NCBI GenBank assembly: GCA_043808785.1
Contig: JAZDEL010000002.1
Location: 1-32,000, forward strand
DNA: 32,000 nucleotides
Source of the DNA: Candidatus Iainarchaeum sp.
GTDB lineage: Archaea; Iainarchaeota; Iainarchaeia; Iainarchaeales; JAZDEL01
Reading direction: 5' to 3'
Of the stretch, positions 9,182 through 27,372 are shown piece by piece (the first letter of the stretch is position 1; every line of letters begins with the position of its first letter). The notes below the pieces were generated by a model. That model saw only the letters and a list, made by a program, of their open reading frames with translations. It did no database searches and had not been told where the DNA came from. The position numbers were made by a program, and so were the translations under genes.

Positions 9182-9294
9182 CCGCCCGCCCCAAGGCGGG
9201 CACTTGCAGTTTTCGCCAGCCTTCGCAGGCAGCGTGATTTTTGCGAAGCAAAAATCCTTCTTTTTGCTAACTTTTTCTTGCAAAGAAAAAGTTA
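9182..9294. repeat. Mosaic palindromic repeat locus R1 (modules A+B+C)
   Basis: Module A is gcccgccccaaggcgggcacttgcagttttcgcca, also found at 27283-27318. Module B is gcgtgatttttgcgaagcaaaaatccttctttttgc at 9232-9267. Module C is the hairpin aactttttcttgcaaagaaaaagtt at 9269-9293, ending 1 nt from the tRNA 3' end. Confidence 0.85.
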
Positions 9295-9431
9295 TGCGCC
9301 CGCCGGGACTCGAACCCGGACGAAGAGCTTGCCCCAACAACCGCAACCTGCCTTGTGTTTCTTTTGTCAACTTTTCTTTCTTAAAGAAAAGTTGTTGGAG
9401 GGCTCTCATGCTGCCATTACACCACGGACGC
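9295..9431 (-). tRNA. tRNA-Gly (anticodon TCC) with a roughly 66-nt intron at 37/38 (intron 9330-9395)
   Basis: A manual cloverleaf was built. The acceptor is GCGTCCG/CGGGCGC plus A73, the D arm GTGT-AATGGCA-GCAT, the anticodon stem AGAGC/GCTCT, the variable loop 4 nt (TCGT), and the T arm CCGGG-TTCGAGT-CCCGG. The spliced loop is CCTCCAA. G1-C72, C2-G71, G3-C70, A73 and a 4-nt variable loop fit Gly. A 3-nt CAA bulge next to the anticodon stem and a 4-bp CCUC/GGGG helix fit a relaxed bulge-helix-bulge motif. The TATA box aatatattaata lies at 9461-9472. Caveat: position 33 would be C. Confidence 0.65.
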
Positions 9432-9525
9432 ATTTTCGCCTGCGCGCCACTTGGCGCGTGAATATATTAATAGCCGCCTCGGTTAATAATTTAATTGTTC
9501 TCCCTGCATTGAGGAAGGGTTTGAT

Positions 9526-10245
9526 ATGGCCAAAAATGCGAAAAACGCTAAAAATGCAGGTTCGGGCAAAGGCGCGGTTTCCGCAAAAAAACAAAGGCCA
9601 AAAACCCGCGCGCCGCGGGTTAAGGGGTTTTTCCTTGTTATTGACGGCATTGACGGCTCGGGGAAGGGCACAATCCTTTCGCTCCTGCATGATTGGTTCC
9701 TTGCGCAGGGGGTTCCGCCGGGTAGGCTCCTGCTTACCGCCGAACCGACTTCAGGCGCCTATGGCAGGCGCATAAGGGAACTCCTCCGTTCCGGCGCCGA
9801 CCCTCACGCCCGGGCGCGCGAACTGCTGAACCTTTACATAAAGGACAGGAAGGAGCACATTTCCCGCGCAATTCTGCCAGCGCTTTCCGCTGGAAAAATA
9901 ATCCTGTGCGACCGCTACAAATACAGCACAATTGCATACCAGTCCGCGCAGGGTTTGGATAAGGGCAAACTGATTTCCCTGCACAAAAAAATGCCGGTGC
10001 CGAACCTTGCCTTGATTTTGGATTTGCCTGTTGAGGAAGCGCTTTCCCGCATCTCCTCCGACAGCAGCCGCAGCGGCAAGGACGTTTTCGAGCGCTCCGC
10101 GTTCCTTGAGAAAGTGCGCGCCAATTTCCTCGCGCTTAAGGAGGAACTGCCGAAGGAGAAAATCGCGGTTATTGACGCCTCGGGAACCAAAGAGGAAGTT
10201 TTTGGGCGCGTGCTCGCGGCAGTGAAGAAAAGTGCCGCAATTTAA
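9526..10245 (+). CDS. tmk: Thymidylate kinase with a basic N-terminal extension of about 31 aa
   Basis: The P-loop region is FFLVIDGIDGSGKGT. The DRY-type motif CDRYKYSTIAYQ and a typical C-terminal half are present. No start codon lies nearer the P-loop, and V32 (GTT) sits where Tmk proteins normally begin. Confidence 0.85.
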   Translation: MAKNAKNAKNAGSGKGAVSAKKQRPKTRAPRVKGFFLVIDGIDGSGKGTILSLLHDWFLAQGVPPGRLLLTAEPTSGAYGRRIRELLRSGADPHARARELLNLYIKDRKEHISRAILPALSAGKIILCDRYKYSTIAYQSAQGLDKGKLISLHKKMPVPNLALILDLPVEEALSRISSDSSRSGKDVFERSAFLEKVRANFLALKEELPKEKIAVIDASGTKEEVFGRVLAAVKKSAAI

Positions 10246-10258
10246 TTGCCCGCATTAA

Positions 10259-10348
10259 GCGTGATTTTCGCCGAAGGCGAAAATCCTTCTTTTTGCTTGC
10301 TTTTGTTGACTTTTCGGAAGCGGGCTATGCCCGCGCTCCTAAAAGTCA
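10259..10348. repeat. Mosaic palindromic repeat locus R2 (module B plus a C-like hairpin)
   Basis: Module B is gcgtgattttcgccgaaggcgaaaatccttctttttgc at 10259-10296. It is followed by gacttttcggaagcgggctatgcccgcgctcctaaaagtc, a hairpin that abuts the tRNA 3' end. Confidence 0.8.
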
Positions 10349-10526
10349 TGCGACTGCCGGGAATCGAACCCGGGTCTGAACCTTGTTGCAAGAACCTCCT
10401 GTGAGGCTTCGGAACCGCAGGTTCCGCCGCCCTGCAGAACCCGCAAGGGTTCTGCCGCAAGGGAGGTATCGGAACCGTAGGTTCTGATGTGGCAAGGTCC
10501 AAGCCTAACCGCTAGCCTACAGTCGC
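10349..10526 (-). tRNA. tRNA-Gly (anticodon GCC) with a 106-nt intron at 37/38 (intron 10384-10489)
   Basis: The acceptor is GCGACTG/CAGTCGC plus A73, the D arm GGCT-AGCGGTTA-GGCT, the anticodon stem GGACC/GGTTC, the variable loop AGAC, and the T arm CCGGG-TTCGATT-CCCGG. The spliced loop is TTGCCAA. A 3' CAA bulge and a perfect 4-bp central helix UUGC/GCAA are present, and the 5' bulge is enlarged (relaxed BHB). The A/T box ttttaaaa at 10558-10565 lies about 32-39 nt upstream. Confidence 0.75.
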
Positions 10527-10539
10527 ATGCCCTCTAAAC

Positions 10540-11952
10540 CTATTTCCTAAGCAAATCTTTTAAAACGAATATAGATGTGGCTGCAATTATAAGCACAAGC
10601 CCTGCAATTGCAAGCGCCTTTACCGCCTGTATTGCCGCATCCCCTGCGCTCATTTTGGGTGCAGGCGCCACCCTTGCGGAAAGCCCGCCCTCGGGGTAAA
10701 CCTCGATGTAATCGCTTATATTGCCGTCCGGCAGCAGCAATATGAATTCATACCTCCCATACGCGCCCATGGTTTCGAATTTCGGCGCAACAACAATGAA
10801 TTCCGCAGTTCCCCACTCCCCCGGCTTCAGCCACACAAGCCTCTTCGATATGCCCTTTATTTTGAAATCCCTGTGCATTTCCAGCTCCACAGGAACTATC
10901 ACATTCATTTTCTGCAGGCCTTTCATTTCTATCGCCAGCCCGACATCCTGCATCGATTCCCCCTTATCCTTCCTCACACTTGCCTGCACAATTCCCATGA
11001 AAACCCTTACTTCGTTTATGGACACCTTCGGCGCCAGGAGCGTGATTTTCGCCTTCACCGAATTTATTGTGTTAGTTGCCACTGTTATGTTTGATAAATC
11101 GTTCACGTCCGCGGACTTCGCAAGCGGGAAATGCAGCGCATCCACATACCCTGCCTCGCCGTATGTAGGGTCCACGCCCACCCAGCCTGTGCCGGGCAGG
11201 TAAGCCTCGATCCAGCCGTGGTTGTTGAATTCCTCCCCGTTGTAACTTACGCCCGAAACATACCTTACGGGAATGCCCTTCGCCCTCATCAGTGCGGCAG
11301 CCATGTTTGCGAACTCGCCGCACACCCCGCGCCTTATCTCGAACGTTTCCCTCGCCCCGTTTTTCACGCCGTAATAGCCGCGGTCGTACGTTATGTTCGA
11401 GTTCACCCACTCGGTTATCCCCCTTATCGCCTCTATTTCCGACGTGCCGCGGAATTCCGAATTCGTGAAATCAACAATCTCATTTGCGTCGCTCTCTATG
11501 AACTCGGTGGGTTCCAGGAATTCCGCCATTTCCTCGCCCCACCCGCCCTTTCCGAGGATGAAATCTTCCCCCAGCCCCATACTCGCGGTGCGCTTTACCC
11601 TTGCCCTTACCTTTATTTCGAACCGCGGGGTTTTTTCATATTTATACATATCCGGAATTTCAAACACCGCATACATCACTCCGTTCAAATCCTCGTTCCT
11701 TGCGTTGTAAGTTTCCCCGCCCATAACCAGGGTTTCCCCGAGGTACTCGACTTCCTGCCCCTCCTGCGCTGCAGGGATTATGAACCTGACTTCCAGCGTG
11801 TCCTGCGCGCTCAATACGCCCGTTATTTCCCCGCTTGCGCCTGTTTCGATAATCACATCGGCATAGTTCACGGTTTCGGGCATTATTTCCTGCGCCGAGC
11901 ATGCCTGCGCCGCAAGCAACACAAGCGCGAGCAAAGCCACTTCTTTTTTCAT
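10540..11952 (-). CDS. Transglutaminase-like cysteine protease-fold protein, secreted and C-terminally anchored
   Basis: The N-terminal signal is MKKEVALLALVLLAAQACSA. The transglutaminase core is RGVCGEFANMAAALMRAKGIPVRYVSG...HGWIEAYL...WVGVDPT, giving a Cys-His-Asp triad. A C-terminal TM helix (ALAIAGLVLIIAATSIFVL) is present. Confidence 0.85.
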   Translation of the reverse strand: MKKEVALLALVLLAAQACSAQEIMPETVNYADVIIETGASGEITGVLSAQDTLEVRFIIPAAQEGQEVEYLGETLVMGGETYNARNEDLNGVMYAVFEIPDMYKYEKTPRFEIKVRARVKRTASMGLGEDFILGKGGWGEEMAEFLEPTEFIESDANEIVDFTNSEFRGTSEIEAIRGITEWVNSNITYDRGYYGVKNGARETFEIRRGVCGEFANMAAALMRAKGIPVRYVSGVSYNGEEFNNHGWIEAYLPGTGWVGVDPTYGEAGYVDALHFPLAKSADVNDLSNITVATNTINSVKAKITLLAPKVSINEVRVFMGIVQASVRKDKGESMQDVGLAIEMKGLQKMNVIVPVELEMHRDFKIKGISKRLVWLKPGEWGTAEFIVVAPKFETMGAYGRYEFILLLPDGNISDYIEVYPEGGLSARVAPAPKMSAGDAAIQAVKALAIAGLVLIIAATSIFVLKDLLRK

Positions 11953-11985
11953 GCAGAATAAGTTATCCGTTCAATAATAAAAATG

Positions 11986-12150
11986 CGGCGGTTCAGCCTT
12001 TTCGGAGCGTGGGGCTTCGCTATTTTGCCTTGCCCTATTTTGCCTCTTGGCAAAATGGGCGCAATTGGCTGTAGCCAATTAGCGCGGCAAAATGCGCGCA
12101 TTCGGCTCAAGCCGAATAGCGTCAGCCCCACTTCCAAAAGCCTGGGGAAA
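11986..12150. repeat. Mosaic palindromic repeat locus R5 (modules F, E, G)
   Basis: Module F is gcggttcagccttttc at 11988-12003, identical to 27186-27201. Module E at 12037-12085 is attttgcctcttggcaaaatgggcgcaattggctgtagccaattagcgc, matching 26228-26277. The segment ccacttccaaaag at 12128-12140 is the reverse complement of 27320-27332. Confidence 0.8.
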
Positions 12151-12184
12151 AACGTTAGCCAGCGCATCCCGAACCAGCGAAAAC

Positions 12185-12583
12185 TCAGAAATCCTCCGCG
12201 ACAAACCCGGCAAGCGCCTTCCTTGCGTCGTCCATCCTGTTTACCTTTGCGGCAAAAATCCCCCTGCCCCCTTTCTTTGTCAGGAGGTAGATGTGCTCTA
12301 TGTTTATCTTCGACTTCTCGAGGATTCTCGCAATCTTCGCAAGCGAGCCCGCCCTGTCGTCCGCTGAAAAGAGCAGGATTTCGGACTCAGTTAACTTGTA
12401 GCCCGTATTTGCAAGCGCCTTCTTCGCCCCCGCAACATCCCGTGTTACCATGCGTATGATTGCGCCGTCCGCAAACGTTTCCGCGCTTATGCTCTCCATG
12501 TTTATCCCGTTATTGCCGAGGCGTTCCGCGATTTCCGCAAGCACCCCCGGCCTGTTGTCCGTCAGTATTGTCAGTTGCTTCAT
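12185..12583 (-). CDS. Tandem ACT-domain protein
   Basis: Two ACT-like units are visible: LTILTDNRPGVLAEIAERLGNNGINMESISA and LLFSADDRAGSLAKIARILEKSKINIEHIY. An AGGAGGG SD lies at 12589-12595 on the minus strand. Confidence 0.75.
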   Translation of the reverse strand: MKQLTILTDNRPGVLAEIAERLGNNGINMESISAETFADGAIIRMVTRDVAGAKKALANTGYKLTESEILLFSADDRAGSLAKIARILEKSKINIEHIYLLTKKGGRGIFAAKVNRMDDARKALAGFVAEDF

Positions 12584-12613
12584 GCCATCCCTCCTGATTT
12601 TTTTTGTGTTGAA

Positions 12614-12676
12614 GCGTGATTTTCGCGAAGCGAAAATCCTTCTTTTTGCAAACTTTTTCTTTCCAAGAAAAAGTTT
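12614..12676. repeat. Mosaic palindromic repeat locus R3 (modules B+C)
   Basis: Module B is gcgtgattttcgcgaagcgaaaatccttctttttgc at 12614-12649. Module C is aactttttctttccaagaaaaagtt at 12651-12675, ending 1 nt from the tRNA-Val 3' end. Confidence 0.85.
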
Positions 12677-12749
12677 TGGGCCGGGGCGGAATCGGACCGC
12701 CGATTTCTGCCTTGTAAAGGCAGCGTCATAGCCGCTAGACCACCGGCCC
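12677..12749 (-). tRNA. tRNA-Val (anticodon TAC), intronless
   Basis: The minus strand reads GGGCCGG-TG-GTCTAGCGGCTATGAC-G-CTGCC-TTTACAA-GGCAG-AAATC-GGCGG-TCCGATT-CCGCC-CCGGCCC-A. This is a perfect 7-bp acceptor with anticodon loop TT-TAC-AA. No CCA is encoded. The TATA box tttaaa at 12777-12782 lies 28-33 nt upstream. Confidence 0.9.
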
Positions 12750-12900
12750 GCACACTAGGTTATGGGTGCGCATTCCTTTAAAGTTTTCTGGCTAACAGGA
12801 AAATGCGCCGGTAGTGGAATGGTGCAACAACGCCCCCCATAACAAAACCTTTAAATAGGGTTCAAACATTATAGATTACGATTTCAAAAGGTGCGTTTGA

Positions 12901-13329
12901 TTGAAAAAGGTGGTTTCTTTCTTCGGCAGGGGAAAAAATGTCCATCTCCCCAAGCTTATAGGCGCGTTCATACTTTTTGCGGCATTGCTGATGTTCATAA
13001 AGGTAAGCGCTGAAATGTTCGAATCCTGGGACAATGCAAAGGCGGTTAATGCCTGCCTTGCCGCGGCGGACGACGAAACAAAGTTCCTTTTCTGCTACAA
13101 TTACGCGAACGAATCATTAGGCGTCACCGTAAGGCCCGAACAGGATAAGCTCACCGGAAGGCAGTTCTGGCAGGTCCTCCTCGGGCCGGTGGTAAGCATG
13201 CTTATCTGGCTCGCGGTGCTCTTTGTGGGGTGGATGCTCTACAGGGCAAGCCATCTTGTCTTTTTCGTCGAGGAGCCCTCGGCAATGAGGGAGCGCTTTT
13301 CGGAGCATGCGTTCAAGAGGAAGAGGTAG
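12901..13329 (+). CDS. Small membrane protein, unknown function
   Basis: It starts at TTG, preceded by an aaaggtg SD-like motif, with the TATA-like box tttaaata at 12852-12859. Two hydrophobic helices are present (IGAFILFAALLMFI and VVSMLIWLAVLFVGWML). Confidence 0.55.
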   Translation: MKKVVSFFGRGKNVHLPKLIGAFILFAALLMFIKVSAEMFESWDNAKAVNACLAAADDETKFLFCYNYANESLGVTVRPEQDKLTGRQFWQVLLGPVVSMLIWLAVLFVGWMLYRASHLVFFVEEPSAMRERFSEHAFKRKR

Positions 13330-13420
13330 TTCTTTCCTTCTTGGGAAGGGTCGGTTTCACTTCAGCGCAGCCTGCGGCATGAGTGCGGGAAATAATGCGG
13401 CAGTGCCGCCTGCCGGCTCC

Positions 13421-13446
13421 TGCAAGTTAAAATAAAAAAATAAGAA
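13421..13446 (-). terminator. Oligo-T tract downstream of dnaG
   Basis: The minus strand reads gccttttcttatttttttattttaac immediately after the dnaG stop. Archaeal transcription termination is associated with oligo-T runs. Confidence 0.5.
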
Positions 13447-13451
13447 AAGGC

Positions 13452-15335
13452 TTAGGCGCCGAGCGCCACAGCCTTAACCTTTTTAGTTCCCTCTACTTTC
13501 CCGCGTTTCATGCCGACGAGGTAGCCGACGCCTGACTCATCCGCCTTCGAAGCAAGGCGCTGCGTAACAATGCCGTCGAAAACAACAGCATGTACGCCCT
13601 TCTCGGTGCCGAGCTTCCCGATAAGTTCCTTGACATCGCATTCCCCGACTTGCTTCATCGCGCTGTCGAAGAGCCTTGCCTTGAAGCTTCCCGAAAGTTC
13701 CTTCATCACAGGAATGAACTGCGACTCTTCTTCCGCAGTGAGCCTCGGGCATGTTTCGCGCTTCTCGAATCCGCCTGCCCCTTCATCCCTGCCCCTTCCG
13801 AAGCTTGGGCGCGCTCCGCCCCTGCCCCTTCCTGGCCCGTCCCTTCCTGGGCCTGCCCTTGAACCGAATCCTCCGCGTTCACTGCGCCCTCCGAATCCGC
13901 CCTCCCTTCCGGAGCCGCGGCCGAAGCCCCCTCTCCTCGGGCCTGCCCTGCCCCCTCTTGGAGGCCCGCTGCGGGAACCGAAGCCCCTTGATGGGCTGCG
14001 CCTTTCCCTGCCGGAGTAAGCGGATTCTCCTGAAACCGCAGGCTTCTCCCCGCCGTTGCTCATGCTGTGCGCCTCCGCAACATCCTGAACATAGCCGGAG
14101 CTTTCTCCCGCACCCTTTGCGCCCGTGCCGTAATCATCGCGAGGCTCTCTCGGGGTGCCGTAGCCCCTGTCCCTGAAACCTCCCCTTGAGCCGAAGCCTC
14201 CTGCGCGCCTGTCAGGGTATCCTGAACTGCCGCGCATTCCGCCCCTGTCTCTTCCGGAATAGCCGCGCCCTGTCCCCGAAAAGCCCCTCCCTTCGGAACG
14301 CCCGCGCCTCGGTGCGTAATCGCCGCCACCTTCAGGAGTGCCCCTTCCGCCACCGCGGTAGCCGCGTTCGTCCCTGCCGCCGAAGCCTCCGCGTTCGTGG
14401 CGCCCTTCCCCTGCGGAATATCCGCCAGCGGAAACGCTCCTGATAATTGCTTCGCCAGAAACCTCGTGCCCCGTATCTGCAGTGATGTGTTCCCTCCCAT
14501 TGAAGCCGTGCCTGAAATCTTCCTCATCCGCGGGAACCCGCCTCTTGAGGGAAAGCAATATTTCTTTGCCTGTAAGCTCTTCCACTTCCTTCCCATCTGG
14601 CGCGCGCGCAACATATGCGACGCTCGCAATCTGCTTAAGCTTCCTCGCGTTCAGTTCCCCGCCCCTGTCGCCGTCCACAAACACGGTTAATTTCTTCCTC
14701 CTGCTTAATTGCACAACCACGGGGCTTATCTGCGAACCCCCCATTCCTATTGCGTTCTTTATACCGTTCTTCAGGAGGTTAAGCACGTCAGCCCTTCCCT
14801 CGACAACAATCAGCTCGTCGCTGTCGTCTATATCCGGGCCTGCAGGCACCTTGTCTTTTCCATACCCCACAATTTCAGCCTTGCGGGCGCTGCCCCTTAT
14901 CTCCTCAGTGAGTTCGTTGCTTTCTGGTATCTGCTCCTTCATCATCCTCTGCAGCAGCACCTTTGCGCGCTCCTTGATTATCTCGCGCTTCGCGCCCCTC
15001 ACATCCTCTATGTTCGTTATCTTGAACTCCGCATCGCACGGCCCCACCTTATCCACGGTTTCGATTCCCGCTGCAAGCGTGCTTGTCTGCACCATGTCCA
15101 TGCTGCTTGGGACAAGAATTTCGCCCTTTGTCCTGCCCATGCTGCTCTTTGAATTTATTTCAATCCTGCCGACCTTCCCGTTTTTCTGCAGTTCCTTGAG
15201 GTCCATCTCGTCCCCGAGCAGGCCCTCGCTCTGCCCGAAGATTGCGCCGATTATATCGGGCTTCTCCACAATGCCCGAAATAACGAAGTCTATATGTATC
15301 ATGTACTTGACCGTGTTCAAATAAGTTTTAGCCAT
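13452..15335 (-). CDS. dnaG: Archaeal DnaG (TOPRIM, exosome-associated) with a large internal RG/RGG-rich low-complexity insertion
   Basis: The N-terminal region is YMIHIDFVISGIVEKPDIIGAIFGQSEGLLG. The TOPRIM motifs are LIVVEGRADVLNLLKNGIKNAIGMGG and TVFVDGDRGGE. The C-terminal block is HAVVFDGIVTQRLASKADESGVGYLVG. A GGAGGA SD lies upstream. Residues about 296-525 are almost entirely G/R/S/F/E/P. Confidence 0.85.
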   Translation of the reverse strand: MAKTYLNTVKYMIHIDFVISGIVEKPDIIGAIFGQSEGLLGDEMDLKELQKNGKVGRIEINSKSSMGRTKGEILVPSSMDMVQTSTLAAGIETVDKVGPCDAEFKITNIEDVRGAKREIIKERAKVLLQRMMKEQIPESNELTEEIRGSARKAEIVGYGKDKVPAGPDIDDSDELIVVEGRADVLNLLKNGIKNAIGMGGSQISPVVVQLSRRKKLTVFVDGDRGGELNARKLKQIASVAYVARAPDGKEVEELTGKEILLSLKRRVPADEEDFRHGFNGREHITADTGHEVSGEAIIRSVSAGGYSAGEGRHERGGFGGRDERGYRGGGRGTPEGGGDYAPRRGRSEGRGFSGTGRGYSGRDRGGMRGSSGYPDRRAGGFGSRGGFRDRGYGTPREPRDDYGTGAKGAGESSGYVQDVAEAHSMSNGGEKPAVSGESAYSGRERRSPSRGFGSRSGPPRGGRAGPRRGGFGRGSGREGGFGGRSERGGFGSRAGPGRDGPGRGRGGARPSFGRGRDEGAGGFEKRETCPRLTAEEESQFIPVMKELSGSFKARLFDSAMKQVGECDVKELIGKLGTEKGVHAVVFDGIVTQRLASKADESGVGYLVGMKRGKVEGTKKVKAVALGA

Positions 15336-15432
15336 TCCAATTCCTCCTTTGGCCTTGCCTTTTTTTGGCTTTTTGTTTTCCTTTGCAGGCTTTATTTTTC
15401 ATTTGCCTGTCCTGTTTTCGCTTCTTGCAGAA

Positions 15433-15720
15433 TCAGGGCGCAGGGGAAATTTTCCCGGAGAGGATTTCGCGGAGTTCTTCCGCGCCCATGCCCTCTATGA
15501 AAACCTTTTTGGTTTTCGATTTCAGGCCGGAAACAATCCTTGCTTTCCTTCCGAGTTCCTTTTCAAGGGCCTTTAACAATTCCCTGTTCGCCTTCCCTTT
15601 TACAGGCATGGATTTGAGCGCGATTTTCAGTACCGCGCTGTGCGGGTCGTAACCCGAAATTCCCGCGCGCTTCGCGCGGGTTTTCACTTCCAAGCCTATC
15701 AAAAGGCCTTTTTCAAGCAT
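15433..15720 (-). CDS. DUF167/YggU-family protein (UPF0235)
   Basis: LKIALKSMPVKGKANRELLKALEKELGRKARIVSGLKSKTKKVFIEG matches the xPxxGKANxEL...G.xSRxK pattern of DUF167 proteins. Confidence 0.7.
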   Translation of the reverse strand: MLEKGLLIGLEVKTRAKRAGISGYDPHSAVLKIALKSMPVKGKANRELLKALEKELGRKARIVSGLKSKTKKVFIEGMGAEELREILSGKISPAP

Positions 15721-15944
15721 TTAAACCTAAACCAACATTTTTTGGTTCCGCGCCTTTGCGGGAACAAAAACCAAACCCGATTTTAACGGTTAAAATTTTG
15801 GTTCTTTTCGGTTCCAAGTCGTGCCGCGTTGCGGCATACCTGTGCCCTGATTCTGGAATATTGCTGGATGTGAGGGTATATTAATATATTGGTTCGGGCA
15901 ACCTTTTGTGGGTGCGGGTTCGGCTGCTGATGGGGGCAAAAAAA

Positions 15945-16528: not shown

Positions 16529-16670
16529 AACACCTCAAAACCCATGTTTCCTGCGGTTATGGCTGTGTTTGCCCTTACAGGAAATCCGCCCAAAGAACGT
16601 TTAAAAACCCCTCGCAGCCCTATTTTATTATAGGGGCTTTCAGCCCCGCGCTTTCTGGAAGTGCGTCAAA

Positions 16671-16820: not shown

Positions 16821-16847
16821 TTGCCGGATAAGGTAAAAGTGGCAATT

Positions 16848-17189: not shown

Positions 17190-17198
17190 AGGCGCGCT

Positions 17199-20158: not shown

Positions 20159-20216
20159 GTTTTACCGCCTTTTTGGTTTTTCCTGCTGTTCGCCCGCTCC
20201 GCCATTTGCCCCTCCC

Positions 20217-20759: not shown

Positions 20760-21664
20760 CTTTTATCCGCGCTCCGCCCGTATTCCCGCGCTATTTCTAT
20801 TCCTGTGTTGAAAGCCCTAAAAAAGCCGTCCCTATTCCCGGCATCAACATAGCCCCGCATCCTTTTCAGGAAATCCTCCATCCTGCCCCCGCTGTTATGC
20901 AAAGCCACGATAAGGTCGGTTACCTCGCTGTCGCTTATTTTCGCGCCCCCAAACTTCCTCTTCGCGCTCCCGAACATTTTCAGGTATTCGCCAAGCAGCC
21001 GCTTATTCATGCCGGTTTCTTTTGAAAGCCACCCAATTATTCCCAGCCTTTCCAAATGGTGCTTAAGGTGCCGCCTCCTGAGCGATTTGCTTATTTCGCG
21101 CAGGTATTCTTCCTTATGCTTAAGCAGTTCCCCCCTGTCAAGCGCAAAAAATACCTTCGGCACTTTATTGCCCATAATTCTCACTGCCGGCGCGCTGCCT
21201 TCCTTGTCATTTGCCCAGATATTTACCGAACCCTCCGAAACGCCCAGCGTATCAGCCACTTTTTTTGCGCCCAGATAGTTCCCTTTTATGTAATTCTCCA
21301 TGACAATTTTTTCAATGATTCCTTTCAGTTCTTCAAGAGGCAGCCCCACAACCGCCAATTTCCCCCCGCGATTCATGCGCCTCCACGGGAGCTTACTCAC
21401 CTCTTTATGGAGCCAGGTGTTCCTCGATATATTATATCTGCTGTAGAAATCCAGCTTGCTGACATGTTTTGTGCTGTCGAATATTTCAAATGAATCCCTC
21501 CGCTTTTTCAGAAGCGCCAGCTGTTCATCGCTTATCGGGCTCTTGAACCCGGCATTTTTTATGATGTGTTTGGCCATCGAATCGCTTACCCCAAGAGTGA
21601 GCCCGACCTTGCCCGGGCCGTGGTGCGGTCCATGCCGTGCGTTGGGGCGCATTTTTCCCGCCAT
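20756..21664 (-). CDS. Basic multi-helix-turn-helix protein, paralog family member (302 aa)
   Basis: HTH-like segments are LTLGVSDSMAKHIIKNAG and AKKVADTLGVSEGSVNIWAN. The module KLDFYSRYNISRNTWLHKEVSKLPWRRMNRGGKLAVVGLP aligns with TDFINELGIRLGKYATGFKAWRIGKIKWEKRVNEQGMVINALP of ORF 21948-23510. Confidence 0.6.
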   Translation of the reverse strand: MAGKMRPNARHGPHHGPGKVGLTLGVSDSMAKHIIKNAGFKSPISDEQLALLKKRRDSFEIFDSTKHVSKLDFYSRYNISRNTWLHKEVSKLPWRRMNRGGKLAVVGLPLEELKGIIEKIVMENYIKGNYLGAKKVADTLGVSEGSVNIWANDKEGSAPAVRIMGNKVPKVFFALDRGELLKHKEEYLREISKSLRRRHLKHHLERLGIIGWLSKETGMNKRLLGEYLKMFGSAKRKFGGAKISDSEVTDLIVALHNSGGRMEDFLKRMRGYVDAGNRDGFFRAFNTGIEIAREYGRSADKR

Positions 21665-21673
21665 TTTCCCACC

Positions 21674-21907
21674 TTACTTCGCAGCCCCCTTCATTGCCTC
21701 AAACCCCGCCCTTGCGAGGTAAAACCCGCCGAACACCAGAATCGCGACAACGCCAAGCACGCCCCACACGCTGTACTGCGAAAAAAGCCTGTCAATCGTG
21801 AACACGCCCTGAAACTGCGCAAGCCATCCCGCAAGCCCGAGGCTGAGCGCGAAAGCAAGAACGCCGATGAGCAAAACAATGGCGCTGTTTATCCAGTTCA
21901 GTTCCAT
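21674..21907 (-). CDS. Small membrane protein with two TM helices
   Basis: The hydrophobic helices are INSAIVLLIGVLAFALSLGLAGWL and VWGVLGVVAILVFGGFYL. It is tightly packed between the paralogs. Confidence 0.5.
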   Translation of the reverse strand: MELNWINSAIVLLIGVLAFALSLGLAGWLAQFQGVFTIDRLFSQYSVWGVLGVVAILVFGGFYLARAGFEAMKGAAK

Positions 21908-21947
21908 GTTGATTAATTGGCGCGAACTTTAATTTATTGGTTTGCTT

Positions 21948-23510
21948 TCAGCGCAAGGCTGAATATATTGGTTTGCTTTTCTGTTTCTGCTCCATTTCAA
22001 TCCTCTGCATTTTCCTGACAGTGCTATCGAATGTGCCGTAGAACTCGGCCTCCCTTTTCGCATCGCTTAATACGTAGTCGATATACTTGTATATTTTGTT
22101 CGGATTTTTTTCCTGCGACAGCGCGAGCATGAAATATTTGATTTTCGGCAAAGAGTATTTCTCCAAATATTCCTTGCCGTTCATGTTCCTAAGTGTGTCG
22201 AAGTGCCTCAGCATTCCGTCAATTACCCCCCCATCCAGCTTTTCGGAAAACGCAGCCTCTATAAAACGGAAACTATCGGGAGATTTCTTCAGCGTTTCGC
22301 TGATTTCCATATCAGCCTCGCGCTCCCATTTCTGCCGCTGCCCTTTCCCCGTTTTAAGATAATGCAGTTCCTTCAGTGCAGCCTCGTTGTTTTGTATTGA
22401 CTTAATGAACTTGCTTATCTTAAGCGTGCTCAGCGTTTCCTCCCCCAATTTCTCCTGCCTTTTCCTTAGCAGTTTTATTATTGATTTTGCCGTGTCCAAC
22501 CCTGCCCCTTTTTCAGCCATCTCATTTTCCCAATTCGCATCCGTCCTTGCCTTCATGCCCTCCTTCCGCAGGTATTCCCTGTTCGCCTTAATGTATTCCC
22601 TGTCCACAAGGGTAAATCCCCTGCCTTTTAGGACTTTGTCCTCAGGGATTTTTCCGAGCCTAACCAAAAGGTCAACCGAGCCAAACGATGTGTTGAGAAT
22701 CGGGCACGCATCCCTCAGCGTCACTTTGCCTTTCGATTTTTCAATAAACTCCCTTAGCTTCTCAACCGCCGAATTTATCCTCGGGTCGCCCTGCTTAAGG
22801 TAATGCGTCTCGCGCCCCCTGCTCTTGAATGTCGGCCAGCCTTCTGCTATCTCCTTTGAATATACGACAACATATCCGAAACTTGGATTTATCCCGTGGC
22901 ACTCGAGAAGGCGCGGGATAGTTATTATCTTCCCGAGCCTCGGGTGATTAATCAGCATGTCTTTTATTTTCGGGGTTTTGCCCATTTTCGAGAGTTTCTT
23001 CTCCTTCTCTCTTTTCATCATTTCCTGATATTCTTTCTCCTTTTCGGGGTCGCCCATATCCCTGACGGCGTTTTTGATTTCCTTGCCGCCCCTCGGCAGC
23101 GCGTTTATGACCATCCCCTGCTCGTTCACCCTCTTTTCCCACTTTATTTTGCCTATGCGCCATGCCTTGAAGCCAGTGGCGTATTTGCCGAGCCTGATTC
23201 CCAACTCATTGATAAAATCGGTCTTTGTTACCTCCGCCTTCCTGTCAATGAACGGCACCTTCCTTTCCTTCAGCAGCCGCGTCACGAATTCGGGGGAAAT
23301 CAGAACCTGCCTGTTTTTTAACAGCCTGCCTGAGGGGCCAAACTCCTTGAAAATAACGTCCTTTGGAACCGCGTTTGCCCTCTTCGCGCGGTTTATTATG
23401 GAAGAGGTGCCCTTAAATCCAGTTGCCAGCGCTGCTTCCTGCGGCGTGAAATACATATGCTTAAGCCTGATTTTTTTGAGGCTTGCGCCGGTGCCTGCGG
23501 CATTGGGCAT
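21948..23510 (-). CDS. Basic multi-helix-turn-helix protein, paralog family member (520 aa)
   Basis: Excisionase-like HTH segments are YFTPQEAALATGFKGTSSIINRAKRANAVP and VTLRDACPILNTSFGSVDLLVRLGKIPEDKVLKGRGFTLVDREYI. It aligns along its N-terminal and central regions with ORF 24166-25707 (shared IKWEKR, ALP, DP(R/Q)I). Confidence 0.6.
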   Translation of the reverse strand: MPNAAGTGASLKKIRLKHMYFTPQEAALATGFKGTSSIINRAKRANAVPKDVIFKEFGPSGRLLKNRQVLISPEFVTRLLKERKVPFIDRKAEVTKTDFINELGIRLGKYATGFKAWRIGKIKWEKRVNEQGMVINALPRGGKEIKNAVRDMGDPEKEKEYQEMMKREKEKKLSKMGKTPKIKDMLINHPRLGKIITIPRLLECHGINPSFGYVVVYSKEIAEGWPTFKSRGRETHYLKQGDPRINSAVEKLREFIEKSKGKVTLRDACPILNTSFGSVDLLVRLGKIPEDKVLKGRGFTLVDREYIKANREYLRKEGMKARTDANWENEMAEKGAGLDTAKSIIKLLRKRQEKLGEETLSTLKISKFIKSIQNNEAALKELHYLKTGKGQRQKWEREADMEISETLKKSPDSFRFIEAAFSEKLDGGVIDGMLRHFDTLRNMNGKEYLEKYSLPKIKYFMLALSQEKNPNKIYKYIDYVLSDAKREAEFYGTFDSTVRKMQRIEMEQKQKSKPIYSALR

Positions 23511-23562
23511 AGTATGATTAGTGCTTTCAGGAATTTATTGCTTTGCTTTATGCCGCGCGCGG

Positions 23563-24003
23563 CTATCCCTTTTTGCCGCGCTTTTTGGATGCCTTTTTCT
23601 TTGCCGCGGGCTTCCCCTTTGCCTTCACGGCCTTTCGCTTTGCGGGCTTCGCCTTCCTCGCCGCCCTGCGTGCGGGAGCCTTTGCCTTTCCCTTCCCCTT
23701 CGCAACAGCAGGCCTCTTAGCGGCGCTTGGAATGGCAATCCCTTCCACAACCCTGAAAACCTGCGCAACAGGCCTCACAGGCTGCACAATCTTCATTCCA
23801 ATGCTCTGCCCGGCCTTCGCTTCCATAACCTTATCGTGCTCTATCTGCATGCTGTCCACTGTCTGCGAGAAGGCCTCCCCGCCCTTCTTGATTACTATTT
23901 CGTCCCCCTGCTTTAAAGTTCCTGTGAGGTCAACCACTGCGACGCCTATCTTATCGTAGTAATGAGATATTTTCCCGACAAGCTTTTCAGCCAAAAACAT
24001 CAC
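23563..24003 (-). CDS. EF-Tu domain 2-like beta-barrel protein with a Lys/Ala-rich histone H1-like tail
   Basis: LVGKISHYYDKIGVAVVDLTGTLKQGDEIVIKKGGEAFSQTVDSMQIEHDKVMEAKAGQSIGMKI matches the small 'translation elongation factor-like' barrel family. The C-terminal roughly 50 aa are AKRPAVAKGKGKAKAPARRAARKAKPAKRKAVKAKGKPAAKKKASKKRGKKG. Confidence 0.65.
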   Translation of the reverse strand: MMFLAEKLVGKISHYYDKIGVAVVDLTGTLKQGDEIVIKKGGEAFSQTVDSMQIEHDKVMEAKAGQSIGMKIVQPVRPVAQVFRVVEGIAIPSAAKRPAVAKGKGKAKAPARRAARKAKPAKRKAVKAKGKPAAKKKASKKRGKKG

Positions 24004-24165
24004 CCTTCTAAATAGGCACGAAGTTAATAAATTGTTAGCGTTTGCGGGTTCCGCAGGGCAGTGAAAAAAAGCAAAAACAAGCCCCCCAAAACAAAACCGC
24101 GAACGTGGGTTTCCCGCGGTTTGCGGGATTATTTTCGTGGTTCAAAGCAGTTTCGGGACCCTGTG

Positions 24166-25707
24166 CTAATCAGCCCGTGAACCGGATATGGCATCTATTA
24201 TTCTTTTCCTGTACCATTCCTTATCTTCGGTCGTTTTCTGCAGGTTATACTCGTACTGCAGCCCCATAATTTTTGCGTGTTCAGCCTGTATTTTGCCCGG
24301 CGTCCAGGATGCCGTGTAATTGTCTACCACCTGCTGAGGCAAGCCAAAGCTGCGCTGCATCCCCGCCACCAGATTTGCGAATTTTTGCTTTATTTCTAAT
24401 TGCTGGCGGTTCCACCTGTAGCTTACCTGCCCTGTTTTGGGCGGCGGCTGCGAAATTTTGCGCCCGCCCGCTTTTGTTGCGGCGCTTTCCGCCCCAAGCT
24501 TCGGCAAGCCCAGTTCGCGCAGCCTACGCCCCACGATCACTCTGAGGCGCGTTATGTTTTCGGGATGCTCGAAAAATTTCCTTGAGAGGTAGTGCTTGCC
24601 CTTGTGCGTTATCACTTCATCCCCCAACTTCCCCTTCAGGAATTCCCCGAGGCGGAACTTGTAGGCGGCGGCGCGCGCCATTTCAATCCCCATAGTATTT
24701 CCTACTTCGGCCATTCCAGCATATTCCTGCAGCACACCGTCCCTCTTTTGCTTTATCCTGAGCGAGCTGTCGAACGAAGCGGCCTTTTCCAGCAGTTTGT
24801 CCAGCATTTCCTTGTTTTTCAGCGCATAATCCCTGTTGATGTAATAGCGCCCCCCGAACTCGATTACCCTGTCGCTGTTGTATGGGCCCTCTGGCACGTT
24901 TTTCAGTATAAATCCGTGCTTTATCGCGGCAGTCACATATGCGTTGTTTTTGCCAAGTAGCCGCGCCAATTCTGCCGCAGGCATGCTTTTTTTAACCGCC
25001 TTCTTCAGGCGCCAAGCGGCTTCTTCAAGCACCTTGATTTGCGGGTCGTCAGGAAGCAGGTATTCTATGTTGCCCTGCTTTTCTATTGGAGCCTTGCCGC
25101 CCTTTCCATAGCCCGACCGGTAAATTCTCCACTTAACCATTTTCTTCAGGAAATCGAAGCGTTCCGTCTTTTCTCTTGAGGGTACTGCGCCAAAAAACAT
25201 CGCAAGGAACTTCGGCCAGCTGTACATGTTATGGACATGAATTTTATATAATCCCGCTTCCTTCAGTTTTTGCTCTATTTTTTTAATTTCCGCATCAGGC
25301 AGCGCATACACGATGTTCGGCCCGCGCTTCCCCCTGATAATCCGCTTTTCCCATTTGATGCCCCCAATTATTTCCTTTTTTGCCTTTGTGAGCTTGTTCT
25401 CGTACCAAACACCCTGGTCTTCAAGGAACACCTTCTTTGTTGTCTCGGTTTTTTCGTCAAATTCCTTTACCCCCTCCCTTTCCACAGCCAGGCTCCTGAC
25501 AAAATCGGCATCAACGAAATACTGCCGTTTCATTACTGTTTTCGGTTTGCCGCCCCATAAAATGCTCGTTTGCACAGGACGTTGCGATAGTGCGCCCGCG
25601 CCCTTTGCCCTGAGCATTATTATCTTGCGCTCAAAGCCCGTCAGCCGTTCCGCATCTTTTATGCTGTGATGCAGTTGTCCCGCGGCTTTGTTCGGCGGTT
25701 TCGGCAT
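24166..25707 (-). CDS. Basic multi-helix-turn-helix protein, paralog family member (513 aa)
   Basis: HTH-like segments are SIKDAERLTGFERKIIMLRAKGAG and MPAAELARLLGKNNAYVTAAIKHGFI. It shares IKWEKR, YALP, DPQI and YINRDY-type blocks with ORF 21948-23510. Confidence 0.6.
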   Translation of the reverse strand: MPKPPNKAAGQLHHSIKDAERLTGFERKIIMLRAKGAGALSQRPVQTSILWGGKPKTVMKRQYFVDADFVRSLAVEREGVKEFDEKTETTKKVFLEDQGVWYENKLTKAKKEIIGGIKWEKRIIRGKRGPNIVYALPDAEIKKIEQKLKEAGLYKIHVHNMYSWPKFLAMFFGAVPSREKTERFDFLKKMVKWRIYRSGYGKGGKAPIEKQGNIEYLLPDDPQIKVLEEAAWRLKKAVKKSMPAAELARLLGKNNAYVTAAIKHGFILKNVPEGPYNSDRVIEFGGRYYINRDYALKNKEMLDKLLEKAASFDSSLRIKQKRDGVLQEYAGMAEVGNTMGIEMARAAAYKFRLGEFLKGKLGDEVITHKGKHYLSRKFFEHPENITRLRVIVGRRLRELGLPKLGAESAATKAGGRKISQPPPKTGQVSYRWNRQQLEIKQKFANLVAGMQRSFGLPQQVVDNYTASWTPGKIQAEHAKIMGLQYEYNLQKTTEDKEWYRKRIIDAISGSRAD

Positions 25708-25716
25708 TTCAACACT

Positions 25717-26073
25717 TCACAGCAGTTTCAAATGCCCCGTCAGTTTATCCAGCTCGGCATCCTCCGCAGGCCCGACCCCGAAGCATGTTTTCGTGCCGGG
25801 CGCGATCTGTGTGTGCCCCGCATCCTGCACAAGCGCGGGCTTCAGCCCCGCGTTTTTAACCTTCTGGAAAAGTTCAACAAGTTCGCGCTCGCTGTTCACT
25901 TTCAGCACAACTTTTTTCTGCCCCTCGGAGCGCCATTCATCAACATCATCAGGGCTCTCCCTCTCCGCGTTCTCCATCGCCATTATGCTCGCGTGCGAGC
26001 ACTGCGCCGCTATTTTTCCCCTGCCCATTTTAAGGTCGGTGCGGACTACAATTACCTGTTTCATCCCAGCCAC
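25717..26073 (-). CDS. pth2: Peptidyl-tRNA hydrolase, archaeal/eukaryotic type (Pth2)
   Basis: MKQVIVVRTDLKMGRGKIAAQCSHAS...KVVLKV.SE.EL......AGL...LVQDAGHTQIAPGT.T..GVGP is the characteristic PTH2 sequence pattern. Confidence 0.85.
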   Translation of the reverse strand: MAGMKQVIVVRTDLKMGRGKIAAQCSHASIMAMENAERESPDDVDEWRSEGQKKVVLKVNSERELVELFQKVKNAGLKPALVQDAGHTQIAPGTKTCFGVGPAEDAELDKLTGHLKLL

Positions 26074-26143
26074 CCTGCGGCAATTGCCTGCTTCATACTA
26101 ATCTTTAATGGCAAACCCATATTTATACCCTGCGCGCCGAGTT

Positions 26144-26311
26144 GCTTTTGATTTTGCGAAGCAAAATCCTTCTTTTTGTCAACTTCCCGTTTTGGCAAAA
26201 GCCAAAAGGGCCCTTTTGGACCAGCCTATTTTGGCTCACGTCAAAATGGGCGCAGTTGGGCAATGCCCAACTAGCGCAGCCCAAAACGGGTTTCTTGCAA
26301 AGAAAAAGTTG
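26144..26311. repeat. Mosaic palindromic repeat locus R4 (modules B, split C, D, E)
   Basis: A 5'-shortened module B lies at 26146-26178. The 18-nt perfect palindrome ccaaaagggcccttttgg at 26202-26219 is identical to 27231-27248. Module E lies at 26228-26277. The right half of module C, tttcttgcaaagaaaaagttg, lies at 26291-26311. The arms cccgttttgg (26186-26195) and ccaaaacggg (26281-26290) bracket the inner modules. Confidence 0.85.
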
Positions 26312-26365
26312 CAGTGGAAATCAGCCCTGCGCGCGTTTTTAAACCGTGCCAAGGCATAATTTTTC

Positions 26366-26782
26366 ATGCAGAGGAAATTCTACCTCGACACCGCGATATG
26401 GATGGATTATTTCGGCGCGCGCGGCAACGGCATCAGGCCGCTCGGGGACCTCGCATTCCAGTTGCTGAAGAAGTGCCGCGAGGATAATTCGCAGATTATC
26501 GTTTCAGATGCCGTTACCGAGGAACTTGAAGCAAGCCTCTCCAAAGCGGAAATAGAAGCGATGTTTTCCGGTTTTGCAGGGCTAATTGCCAGGGTCTGGC
26601 GGACAAAGGAACAGGCAGTAGAGGCATTTGCCTTGCGCAGGAAATTAGGCAGCGAGTTCCCGCTTTACGACATCCTGCATTCGATTATTGCTAGAGATGA
26701 GAAAGCGGTTCTTGTCGCGCGCGACAGGCATTTCTGGGAAATTGGCATTGCGGAAGTTTGCCTGCCCGAGGATTTGCTTTAG
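26366..26782 (+). CDS. PIN-domain protein (VapC-like ribonuclease)
   Basis: The acidic PIN positions are present: FYLDTAIW (D near the N-terminus), VTEELE, LYDILH and ARDRHF. The size is typical of VapC toxins. A TATA-like box gtttttaaacc lies at 26334-26344. Confidence 0.7.
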   Translation: MQRKFYLDTAIWMDYFGARGNGIRPLGDLAFQLLKKCREDNSQIIVSDAVTEELEASLSKAEIEAMFSGFAGLIARVWRTKEQAVEAFALRRKLGSEFPLYDILHSIIARDEKAVLVARDRHFWEIGIAEVCLPEDLL

Positions 26783-26849
26783 CGCCCGCCTAATTCCGCG
26801 CATTGCTTTGGCTCAGGGCGCGGATGCATGCCATTTGGGGCCGAAGTCT

Positions 26850-27149
26850 TCACGGCTTTATGCCGAATTGTTCGCACAGCCTCTTTTCCAGTTCCCTGCT
26901 CCCTTCGCCGCTTCTCCATGCGTGAAATTCCTCGTCCGTTTTGAACCTGCCCTTCCCCTTGAATGCGCCTTTCGCGGCAAACAGCGCTTCCCACGCCTTT
27001 TTCTTCGAGCGCTCCCCGTCAAGTTCCTTGAGTTTCGCCCTTATGGCGTCCCTGATGAACTCTGTTTTGGTCGTATAATTGAACTCGCGCATTCCCTTTT
27101 CAACTTGCCTCGCAATCGAGGCATCCAGCTGAATGCTTATATGCTCCAT
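26850..27149 (-). CDS. Ribbon-helix-helix (CopG-like) DNA-binding protein
   Basis: The N-terminus ISIQLDASIARQVEKGMREFNYTTKTEFIRDAIRAKL is a canonical RHH (beta strand plus two helices). It is convergent with the PIN gene rather than co-transcribed. Confidence 0.7.
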   Translation of the reverse strand: MEHISIQLDASIARQVEKGMREFNYTTKTEFIRDAIRAKLKELDGERSKKKAWEALFAAKGAFKGKGRFKTDEEFHAWRSGEGSRELEKRLCEQFGIKP

Positions 27150-27185
27150 AGCATTAAATGCTACATAGTGCTTTTTAAAAAACCC

Positions 27186-27372
27186 GCGGTTCAGCCTTTT
27201 CTTATAAAGAAACCCGTTTTGGGCTAAAGCCCAAAAGGGCCCTTTTGGCGCAAGCCAAAACGGGAGGCTGGCGAAAAGAACAGCCCGCCTCTAGGCGGGC
27301 ACTCGCAGTTTTCGCCAACCTTTTGGAAGTGGGTTTGAGCCCAAGCGAAAACCCACGCTCCGAAAAGGTTGC
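27186..27372. repeat. Mosaic palindromic repeat locus R6 (modules F, D, A, G)
   Basis: Module F lies at 27186-27201, the 18-nt palindrome at 27231-27248, and module A (gcccgcctctaggcgggcactcgcagttttcgcca) at 27283-27318. The segment cttttggaagtgg lies at 27320-27332. The hairpin gtgggtttgagcccaagcgaaaacccac follows. Confidence 0.85.

Follow-up and report, generated by a model that had tools for sequence, protein, structure and literature searches.

Nested hairpin cassettes in six intergenic regions of a Candidatus Iainarchaeum contig, their turnover between close relatives and their likeness to an insert in an archaeal tRNA gene

What are the short palindromic modules that fill six intergenic regions of a Candidatus Iainarchaeum contig, and how did they come to recur there? 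The regions lie within the first 32,000 nucleotides of contig JAZDEL010000002.1 (assembly GCA_043808785.1), a stretch that we call the window, at positions 9182-9294, 10259-10348, 11986-12150, 12614-12676, 26144-26311 and 27186-27372 (regions 1 to 6). An initial annotation, made from the letters alone, had described them as non-coding mosaics of a shared hairpin vocabulary, comparable to bacterial interspersed mosaic elements (BIMEs) or to MITEs, the miniature transposable elements with inverted repeats. We give about an even chance to the following answer: the regions are mobile, nesting hairpin cassettes, similar in form to repetitive extragenic palindromic (REP) elements and BIMEs, tolerated as tRNA introns and constrained once fixed. 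For the genome of the window our evidence covers these 32 kb and one sister genome, contig L048 (other contigs are likewise designated by L numbers), and copy numbers are small.

Every recurrence that had been listed for the six spacers is present in the sequence, and shuffled sequence yields almost none. Module B occurs four times with the invariant 16-nt core AAAATCCTTCTTTTTG (at 9251, 10280, 12633 and 26163; 0.09 copies expected from shuffles), each time on the plus strand. Module C, for which three to four copies had been counted, is complete at 9269-9293 and 12651-12675, and its last 20 nt return at 26291-26310; this third copy is in fact a whole C, split within its T5 run by a 105-nt insert (26186-26290). 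Module A (9184 and 27283), the 18-nt palindrome CCAAAAGGGCCCTTTTGG (26202 and 27231) and GCGGTTCAGCCTTTTC (11988 and 27186) have two copies each, for a shuffle expectation of 0.00-0.08. Module E is found at 12051 and, as read by eye, again at 26240-26275 with a loop 1 nt longer, while CCACTTCCAAAAG occurs once per strand (12128 and 27320). Stems were tabulated copy by copy; a MAFFT alignment of the module B copies had two of them out of register. A common vocabulary of hairpins, combined in varying ways, does build the six regions.

The regions are also non-coding, as had been proposed, since the indels between relatives or copies measure 44, 55 and 105 nt. With all their open frames joined as one query, 5.8 billion proteins gave no match at E <= 10. 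The spurious open reading frames (ORFs) across them are real, the B-C unit being open in all six reading frames. An interpretation as CRISPR was rejected for want of a regular repeat-spacer pattern.

The window is archaeal and encodes Hjc, PTH2, NurA/HerA, the DnaG primase and dTMP kinase, with a G+C content of 52.8%. Its HerA, transglutaminase-like protein, Tmk, ACT, DnaG, PIN, RHH and NurA are identical to NCBI proteins in the range MFH1224406-MFH1224433, from a metagenome-assembled genome (MAG) named "Candidatus Diapherotrites archaeon", a lineage of the DPANN archaea. Three tRNA genes on the minus strand have their 3' trailers in regions 1, 2 and 4, a context that the initial annotation overlooked. 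Region 3 lies between two minus-strand genes, and regions 5 and 6 each separate divergent genes, PTH2/PIN and RHH/NurA, respectively. The units that we distinguish are the following.

9184-9218, plus strand: module A, copy 1, GCCCGCC-ccaa-GGCGGGC with the tail ACTTGCAGTTTTCGCCA, without the left outer arm TGGCGAAAA of copy 2.
9232-9268, plus strand: module B, copy 1, GATTTTTGC-gaa-GCAAAAATC with the pyrimidine tail CTTCTTTTTGC.
9269-9293, plus strand: module C, copy 1, starting 1 nt past the 3' end of the tRNA gene 9294-9432; it reads AACTTTTTCTT-gca-AAGAAAAAGTT, and each strand has a T5 run.
10259-10296, plus strand: module B, copy 2, directly past the dTMP kinase stop codon, its stem (GATTTTCGCC/GGCGAAAATC) extended by one pair.
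10308-10347, plus strand: C-type outer hairpin GACTTTT...AAAAGTC enclosing GCGGGC-tat-GCCCGC, abutting the 3' end of tRNA-Gly.
11988-12003, plus strand: GCGGTTCAGCCTTTTC, copy 1, immediately upstream, on the side of the transcription factor B recognition element (BRE), of the TATA box of the transglutaminase-like gene (minus strand); its 3' half is the start of the left arm of hairpin H.
11996-12142, minus strand: hairpin H, inverted, with arms at 11996-12015 and 12125-12142 and nested hairpins in its loop.
Hairpins in the H loop of region 3: ATTTTGCC at 12037-12056, AATTGGC at 12063-12080 and ATTCGGC at 12100-12117, the first two being module E.
12614-12650, plus strand: module B, copy 3.
12651-12675, plus strand: module C, copy 2, abutting the 3' end of tRNA-Val(TAC).
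26150-26179, plus strand: module B, copy 4, with a shorter stem (GATTTTGC/GCAAAATC).
26180-26310, plus strand: module C, copy 3, split into CAACTT (26180-26185) and TTTCTTGCAAAGAAAAAGTT (26291-26310).
26186-26290, plus strand: 105-nt insert within C, with ends CCCGTTTTGG and CCAAAACGGG, a palindrome unit at 26202-26219 and module E at about 26226-26279.
27186-27201, plus strand: GCGGTTCAGCCTTTTC, copy 2, adjoining on its upstream side the TATA box (27172-27182) of the RHH gene (minus strand).
27212-27263, plus strand: 52-nt palindrome unit, CCCGTTTTGGG-ctaaag-CCCAAAAGGGCCCTTTTGG-cgcaag-CCAAAACGGG, without module E; one substitution relative to L048.
27268-27316, plus strand: module A, copy 2, in which an outer stem TGGCGAAAA/TTTTCGCCA encloses GCCCGCC-tcta-GGCGGGC.
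27318-27367, plus strand: hairpin H, the loop empty; into this loop (after window position 27346) L048 has 55 nt inserted, and another 44 nt immediately ahead of H.

Not all of these units need be cassettes: GCGGTTCAGCCTTTTC and the right ends of regions 5 and 6, all beside TATA boxes, could instead be parts of promoters.

The modules are nested in one another. In region 5, the two parts of module C rejoin to an intact copy with exactly five T's once the 105-nt insert is taken out, and the insert has 10-nt terminal inverted repeats without a target duplication. Region 6 holds the unit of this insert minus module E. The orientation of hairpin H can be read from its asymmetric internal loop and is forward in region 6 and inverted in region 3. 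Its terminal loop measures 11 nt in region 6 and about 110 nt, with three to four hairpins, in region 3; in L048 it holds two hairpins. Cassettes are thus seated in the loops or T-runs of other cassettes, forming a nested mosaic.

How such a mosaic behaves over time can be seen in L048, a contig of the Logan assembly of run SRR22387960 that was found through 90% protein clusters and whose genes are 79-85% identical to those of the window. Exact-cluster look-ups with ten window proteins returned no other sister contig. The transglutaminase-like gene, used to look for relatives that share the gene order around regions 1 to 4, yielded homologues of at most 42% identity.

The RHH-NurA spacer of L048 has the cassettes of region 6 in unchanged order, plus two whole-hairpin inserts that the window does not have. 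The first, just before H, consists of CTTTCGGGA-tat-TCCCGAAAG and GATTCCGAAC-ccaa-GTTCGGAATC (44 nt). The second, in the loop of H, consists of ATTCGGGC-atat-GCCCGAAT and ATTTTGCC-gaaa-GGCAAAAT (55 nt); it has AGCG on both sides, and its modules are those that fill H in region 3 of the window. At the PTH2-PIN spacer, where the flanks are conserved, L048 carries a single H-type hairpin in place of the B, C, palindrome unit and E of the window. From the differences at these two spacers it follows that whole cassettes turn over between close relatives. The junctions of the indels read none (in the T5 run of C), CC, AGCG and A, with no common target or duplication.

Are the modules then debris of a known kind of transposable element? 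The terminal inverted repeats of the 105-nt unit, the AGCG on both sides of the 55-nt insert and the adjacency of modules to tRNA genes would suit fragments of a classical insertion sequence (IS) or MITE, or relics of an element integrated at tRNA genes. We think this very improbable, given that inverted repeats and target duplications are inconsistent from unit to unit, that the tRNA 3' ends are not duplicated and that the units span only 18-55 bp. Neither do the regions show similarity to phage or plasmid records, and the window has no transposase or integrase gene.

More distant contigs with the same gene order (L032, L033 and L044-L047, with HerA 82%, 76% and about 65% identical) contain no modules. 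One of them, L044, has the PIN gene and a 98-aa gene upstream of NurA without any module; therefore the genes of the PIN/RHH region are ancestral and the cassettes are not. The two genes (26366-27149) are convergent with a promoter each, in an arrangement kept in L048 and L044, and do not form a co-directional toxin-antitoxin operon. The idea that they are the cargo of an element bounded by regions 5 and 6 was rejected, as L044 and L048 have the pair at the same place.

At the one locus compared, cassettes that are in place change little. Between the window and L048, the RHH-NurA spacer is 94.8% identical (273 of 288 aligned positions). The corresponding figures are 94.8% for NurA and 96.1% for HerA at second codon positions, 60.6% and 66.1% at third positions, 75% for the RHH coding sequence, and 43% and 74% for two other non-coding stretches. 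Region 6 itself differs by about six substitutions in 187 nt, three of which fall in one 11-nt linker. The hairpins common to both genomes are about 99% identical, with loops conserved like stems. In conservation, orthologous cassettes are thus on a par with second codon positions; about ten times more divergence would be expected of neutral junk. This conservation, far above that of neutral sites and overlooked by the initial annotation, argues against plain selfish junk. Paralogous copies within the window diverge more than orthologous copies, so gene conversion or homogenisation does not explain it.

In folding, each of the six regions surpasses its dinucleotide shuffles by a wide margin on either strand (z from -2.8 to -7.0), and perfect hairpins with a stem of at least 8 bp reach 5.0 per 10 kb in the window, compared with 0-2.5 in the relatives of the same gene order. 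Almost all stems are built on A4/T4-5 tracts, and at least eight different stem sequences occur among the palindromes. G-U pairs make up 4-5% of pairs and are equally rare on the two strands (19/405 versus 16/407), hence the palindromes are DNA-type, without a strand signal. The compensatory stem changes previously reported are genuine, with both arms altered, but few per family. Among the asymmetric modules, B (four copies), A, E and GCGGTTCAGCC (two copies each) all lie on the plus strand whatever the orientation of the flanking genes, and only hairpin H is found in both orientations (window 9232-27317). The common orientation could reflect a replication-strand bias.

These properties bear on two other explanations. 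Regions 3, 5 and 6 could be multi-hairpin non-coding RNA genes of an undescribed family, whose helices are the modules and whose expansion segments are the indels. Stems and loops that are about 99% conserved between species while linkers vary, stems that covary between paralogues, long-range outer stems that close regions 3 and 6 (z = -5.6 to -7.0) and the palindromic TATA box at 27172-27182 would all fit such genes. The lack of strand signal, with few G-U pairs and those equal on the strands, does not. Nor does the Rfam 15 covariance scan of the window, which found tRNAs only and left the modules without a match even at E <= 5. Moreover, whole helices of 44-105 nt differ between close relatives, the L048 counterpart of region 5 has entirely other modules, and the same modules serve as tRNA trailers and as an intron. 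We regard RNA genes of this kind as decidedly unlikely.

Alternatively, the palindromes could be operators of dimeric DNA-binding proteins, for example the adjacent RHH of the PIN/RHH pair. A perfect 18-bp palindrome does lie upstream of both the PIN and the RHH gene, and stem and loop are conserved uniformly, as in a double-stranded binding site. Against this, at least eight unrelated palindrome sequences would have to be bound, both half-sites change together between copies, which fits pairing within a strand rather than one protein, L048 has no palindrome upstream of PIN, and L044 has the gene pair without any module. We give the operators hardly any credence.

The trailers of the three tRNA genes raise a different question, namely whether the modules are simply host signals. 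The genes, all on the minus strand, are these.

9294-9432, minus strand: tRNA gene, Trp(CCA) according to ARAGORN, interrupted by a 64-nt intron.
10348-10527, minus strand: tRNA-Gly(GCC) with a 106-nt intron of GGAACC/GGTTCC-type hairpins.
12677-12749, minus strand: tRNA-Val(TAC).

Each of them is followed, 1-3 nt past the discriminator base, by a C-type hairpin whose 5' arm gives a T4-T5 run; a purine stretch GCAAAAAGAAGG and the module B hairpin come next, in three cases out of three. A B-C unit is otherwise found in one of about 30 spacers. Region 2 is also directly past the dTMP kinase stop.

In addition, the intron of the tRNA gene 9294-9432 contains a C-like hairpin (9368-9394) followed by ACAAAAGAA. 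An alignment of this stretch to C and the B tail, same strand, scores 29; shuffles score 13.3 +/- 2.4, and one in 1000 of them reaches this value. The identity of this gene is uncertain: the anticodon stem of Trp(CCA) is imperfect, and the Rfam alignment allows Gly(UCC) with C33. Default ARAGORN missed both intron-bearing genes, and Rfam at the gathering score missed one. In a loose scan for bulge-helix-bulge (BHB) motifs, the C-like hairpin of the intron can pair with the trailer module C across the 3' exon (9283-9382, minus strand); the pairing may be incidental. The scan gave many chance matches in the window and did not recover the known tRNA introns in strict form. A C/D-box RNA within the intron was rejected, as no C or D boxes could be read.

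Ordinary host cis-elements, that is oligo-T or hairpin terminators, tRNA trailer signals and promoter-proximal sites, might have arisen by local duplication and convergent selection, the indels being deletions or slippage at palindromes. B-C units that follow three tRNA genes and dTMP kinase at their 3' ends and bear a T4-T5 run on either strand would suit such elements. So would GCGGTTCAGCC and, in regions 5 and 6, the right ends, all of which adjoin TATA boxes, with flanks kept in L048 and L032. The strong constraint on orthologous copies and the absence of a transposase from the window add to this. It is less easily seen why the same 105-nt or 55-nt composites should sit inside other hairpins at unrelated loci (regions 3, 5 and 6 and L048), why the modules are missing from relatives that have the same genes and promoters, or why regions 5 and 6 lie between divergent genes. 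We consider cis-elements an unlikely account, also in view of a tRNA gene from another archaeal group.

Module B was sought by pattern scans of genome and metagenome contig collections, the pattern requiring 22-23 bases. All matches were single chance hits in A+T-rich genomes, except those in L016 and L034/L035. Viral contigs gave one chance hit for module B and none for module A, and a scan of all archaeal loci gathered for a T-tract hairpin with a pyrimidine tail found no further B-like units. The EF-1alpha of L016 and the proteasome subunit of L034/L035 each fall in a 90% cluster with proteins, in the latter case one protein, of "Ca. Woesearchaeota". In L034/L035, the unit lies between divergent genes and reads GATTTTTGCC-caat-GGCAAAAATC, CTTCTTTTTG, then GTCAAGCTTTTTAAC-gtaa-GTTAAAAAGGTTGA; L016 carries a unit of the same type plus a second B hairpin. 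The likenesses to the window that the search pattern did not impose consist in longer stems, the sequence TCAA(G)CTTTTT, a second hairpin and the arrangement tRNA-C-B or the position beside a tRNA. B-C-type units in two Woesearchaeota-like genomes mean that the modules are not a local duplication, the alternative that the initial annotation had left standing. The feature is real, non-random and more than such a duplication.

The unit of L016 is located in a tRNA gene. The T-loop of its tRNA-Glu(CUC) gene (3004-3256) holds a 145-nt C-B-B insert in the context ...CUCGGGUUCAAA | 145 nt | UCCCGAUGGGAGCA, and ARAGORN calls tRNA-Glu(CUC) once this insert is removed. A near-canonical BHB motif, located at T-loop position 59/60, is made by the junctions. 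It consists of the T-stem UCGGG/CCCGA, a helix UUCA/UGAA of 4 bp, two 3-nt bulges (AAA and AGU) and, inside, the helix AACCUUUUU/AAAAAGGUU; this last helix, of 9 bp, is the terminal inverted repeat of the cassette. Predicted cuts 2 nt into each bulge remove 145 nt and restore the consensus T-loop UUCAAAU. The cuts are placed according to the general rule for BHB motifs. The D-loop of the same gene has a 30-nt hairpin insert of similar geometry, with a 4-bp helix GUCC/GGAC and predicted cuts 2 nt downstream. Judged by its sequence, the T-loop insert would qualify as a BHB intron; the intergenic copies of the window are not flanked by exons.

The orthologous tRNA-Glu is uninterrupted in L049, L050 and L051, which belong to the same EF-1alpha cluster, so the C-B-B unit of L016 is an insertion, not a deletion or a terminator. 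Host cis-elements give no reason for its presence within a tRNA gene that is intact in the orthologues. In the opposite sense, tRNA-Ser(GGA) has a 21-nt D-loop insert in L049-L051 (at about 4500-4620) that is absent from L016 (2566-2662). L049 further has introns of 72 nt in tRNA-His and of 13 nt in tRNA-Thr. Woesearchaeota-like genomes that share at least 90% identity in EF-1alpha thus differ in the small inserts of their tRNA genes. L056 (3665-4280) and L057 (5637-5894), also in the cluster, have neither tRNA-Ser nor tRNA-Glu in the spacer past the S10 gene. There the spacer is packed with other A4/T4-stem hairpins: AAAAATC/GATTTTT, CGAAAACT/AGTTTTCG, GGAAATCC/GGATTTCC and GAAAATTC/GAATTTTC. 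Altogether, in the Woesearchaeota-like group cassettes enter tRNA genes, where they are intron-like in form.

We now return to the mobile, nesting cassettes proposed at the outset. Some DPANN archaea would possess a family of non-coding, self-complementary DNA cassettes of 18-55 bp, spreading at the DNA level by insertion or copying that depends on hairpins or single strands, with the enzyme encoded outside the window. The process would prefer T/A runs and hairpin loops and leave no regular target duplication. A copy landing in a tRNA gene would survive through removal by the splicing endonuclease, which amounts to intron gain. Fixed copies would come to serve the host, most likely as hairpin and oligo-T boundaries that stop or trim transcripts from either strand, tRNA 3' trailers included.

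Several points weigh against this proposal. Among the roughly 30 ORFs of the window there is no transposase, integrase, HUH or Y1 domain. Recombination at hairpins, or slippage there during replication, might produce the same pattern of indels, and the intergenic ones may be either insertions or deletions. The copy number per module is tiny (2-4). The conservation figure comes from one locus in one pair of genomes, and the 22-23 bases of the search pattern are shared by construction between the B-C of the window and the Woesearchaeota units. Regions 5 and 6 lie between divergent genes, without an obvious use as terminators; hairpins are not known to be required for termination in archaea.

A bolder version can be put forward only tentatively, and we find it rather doubtful: one mobile hairpin family would fill DPANN spacers and trailers and directly yield non-canonical tRNA introns, the intergenic copies being the reservoir or intermediate of intron transposition, and the fixed copies would be co-opted for a sequence-specific host function. 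The cassette within the tRNA gene of L016 suggests, at any rate, where archaeal tRNA introns may originate.

The window has other features besides the six regions. Another hairpin-rich spacer, at 15720-15850 between a DUF167 gene and hjc, contains GGTTCCGCG-ccttt-GCGGGAAC, ATTTTAAC-g-GTTAAAAT and GTGCCGCGTTGCGGCAT, a vocabulary that differs from that of the six regions. At both the PIN and the NurA gene, a motif GCA(G/C)(T/C)GGAAA(T/C)..CCC precedes the TTTTTAAACC TATA box by about 10 nt (window 26311-26327 and 27370-27386). It is kept in L048 (3334-3350 and 4422-4438) and appears twice in L032 as GCACCGGAAAT (at about 2262 and 2787), which makes it a candidate transcription-factor site. It resembles what we take to be the core of the origin recognition box (ORB), CCAGTGGAAA, yet is located at promoters. 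A replication origin was rejected, since the spacing between the ORB-like motif and the TATA boxes is constant and the neighbourhood has no orc1/cdc6 gene.

Two paralogous orphan genes on the minus strand, 21948-23510 and 24166-25707, encode proteins of 520 and 513 aa (24% identity, E = 5e-8) and lie on stretches of about 1.6 kb that are absent from L048. Neither protein has a hit in Pfam, NCBIfam or PHROG, and for the 513-aa one 1.84 billion representative proteins yielded no relative. Direct repeats of about 29 nt that end in ATTTATTGGTTTGCTTT flank the first gene, at 21920, 21951 and 23521; both genes may be mobile. Towards the start of the window, three tandem paralogues of 438, 365 and 370 aa without a Pfam hit (647-4185) precede a 1018-aa protein (4193-7249). 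The latter has at least ten Cys/Asp-rich repeats of about 20 aa and CARDB, MopE-like and TSP3-like hits, and is probably a surface protein.

The practical consequence for DPANN MAGs concerns annotation, as the cassettes hide tRNA genes from standard finders and open all six reading frames.

How do the cassettes compare with known systems? Oligo-T or bidirectional hairpin terminators share with them the T4-T5 runs on both strands and the position past tRNA genes and dTMP kinase, which fits regions 1, 2 and 4 and not regions 5 and 6. They differ in that two of the six regions lie between divergent genes and that the loop sequences are conserved; the other terminators of the window, for example past dnaG, are plain T-runs without hairpins.

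With REP elements, BIMEs and REPINs the cassettes have in common short imperfect palindromes in spacers, often at gene 3' ends, a mosaic, nested arrangement and insertion into other repeats. Vertical inheritance and long-term conservation, as described for REP elements in the RAREFAN preprint, are likewise seen here. In contrast to REP/BIME, there are many unrelated stems rather than one consensus, most asymmetric units are co-oriented, and stems are built on A/T tracts where REP stems are G+C-rich. No stem in the regions has a REP consensus or a GTAG/CGTC tag, and each module has two to four copies in 32 kb. The window encodes no RAYT (TnpA-REP) transposase; the RAYT classes are reported in Bacteria only, Archaea having only IS200-type TnpA (PMC6006769). 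The comparison made in the initial annotation thus holds for the form, with modules gained and lost as units between close relatives, and did not extend to membership of REP/BIME or of classical MITEs on the features tested. As far as we could find, this would be the first REP/BIME-like system in archaea, in genomes that are usually called streamlined.

Like MITEs and palindrome-associated transposable elements (PATEs), the cassettes are small, non-coding, structured and located in spacers, and some have terminal inverted repeats. Classical MITEs differ, as inverted repeats occur here in some units only and there are neither consistent target-site duplications nor common ends. The hairpins, the lack of target duplication and the co-orientation of B, A and E resemble PATEs, which derive from IS200/IS605, and recall single-strand transposition. 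The units are, however, much shorter than MITEs or PATEs and have no fixed target, no TnpA or TnpB is encoded in the window, and H occurs in both orientations.

The last comparison is with the tRNA introns of Thermoproteales, for which transposition of BHB introns has been described (Fujishima et al. 2010, as cited in PMC4090602). Their gain is thought to happen at the DNA level, with mechanism and donor not known, and transposition was inferred from sequence likeness; the gain and movement of archaeal tRNA introns are an open question (PMC4090602). DPANN lineages with broad-specificity endonucleases show a high rate of tRNA gene disruption (PMC5829648). In the open-access literature we found no description of intergenic copies of such units in archaea. 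Both systems have similar short sequences as introns at canonical and non-canonical tRNA positions. Unlike the Thermoproteales introns, the unit described here is also found in trailers, between promoters and nested in hairpins, and the cassettes vary in presence and absence between close relatives. One type of cassette is thus seen in three settings: in spacers, nested in other cassettes, and, as a recent insertion with BHB borders, within a tRNA gene whose intact orthologues represent the state "before". Together these settings make the origin of tRNA introns testable with existing metagenomes and splicing-endonuclease assays.

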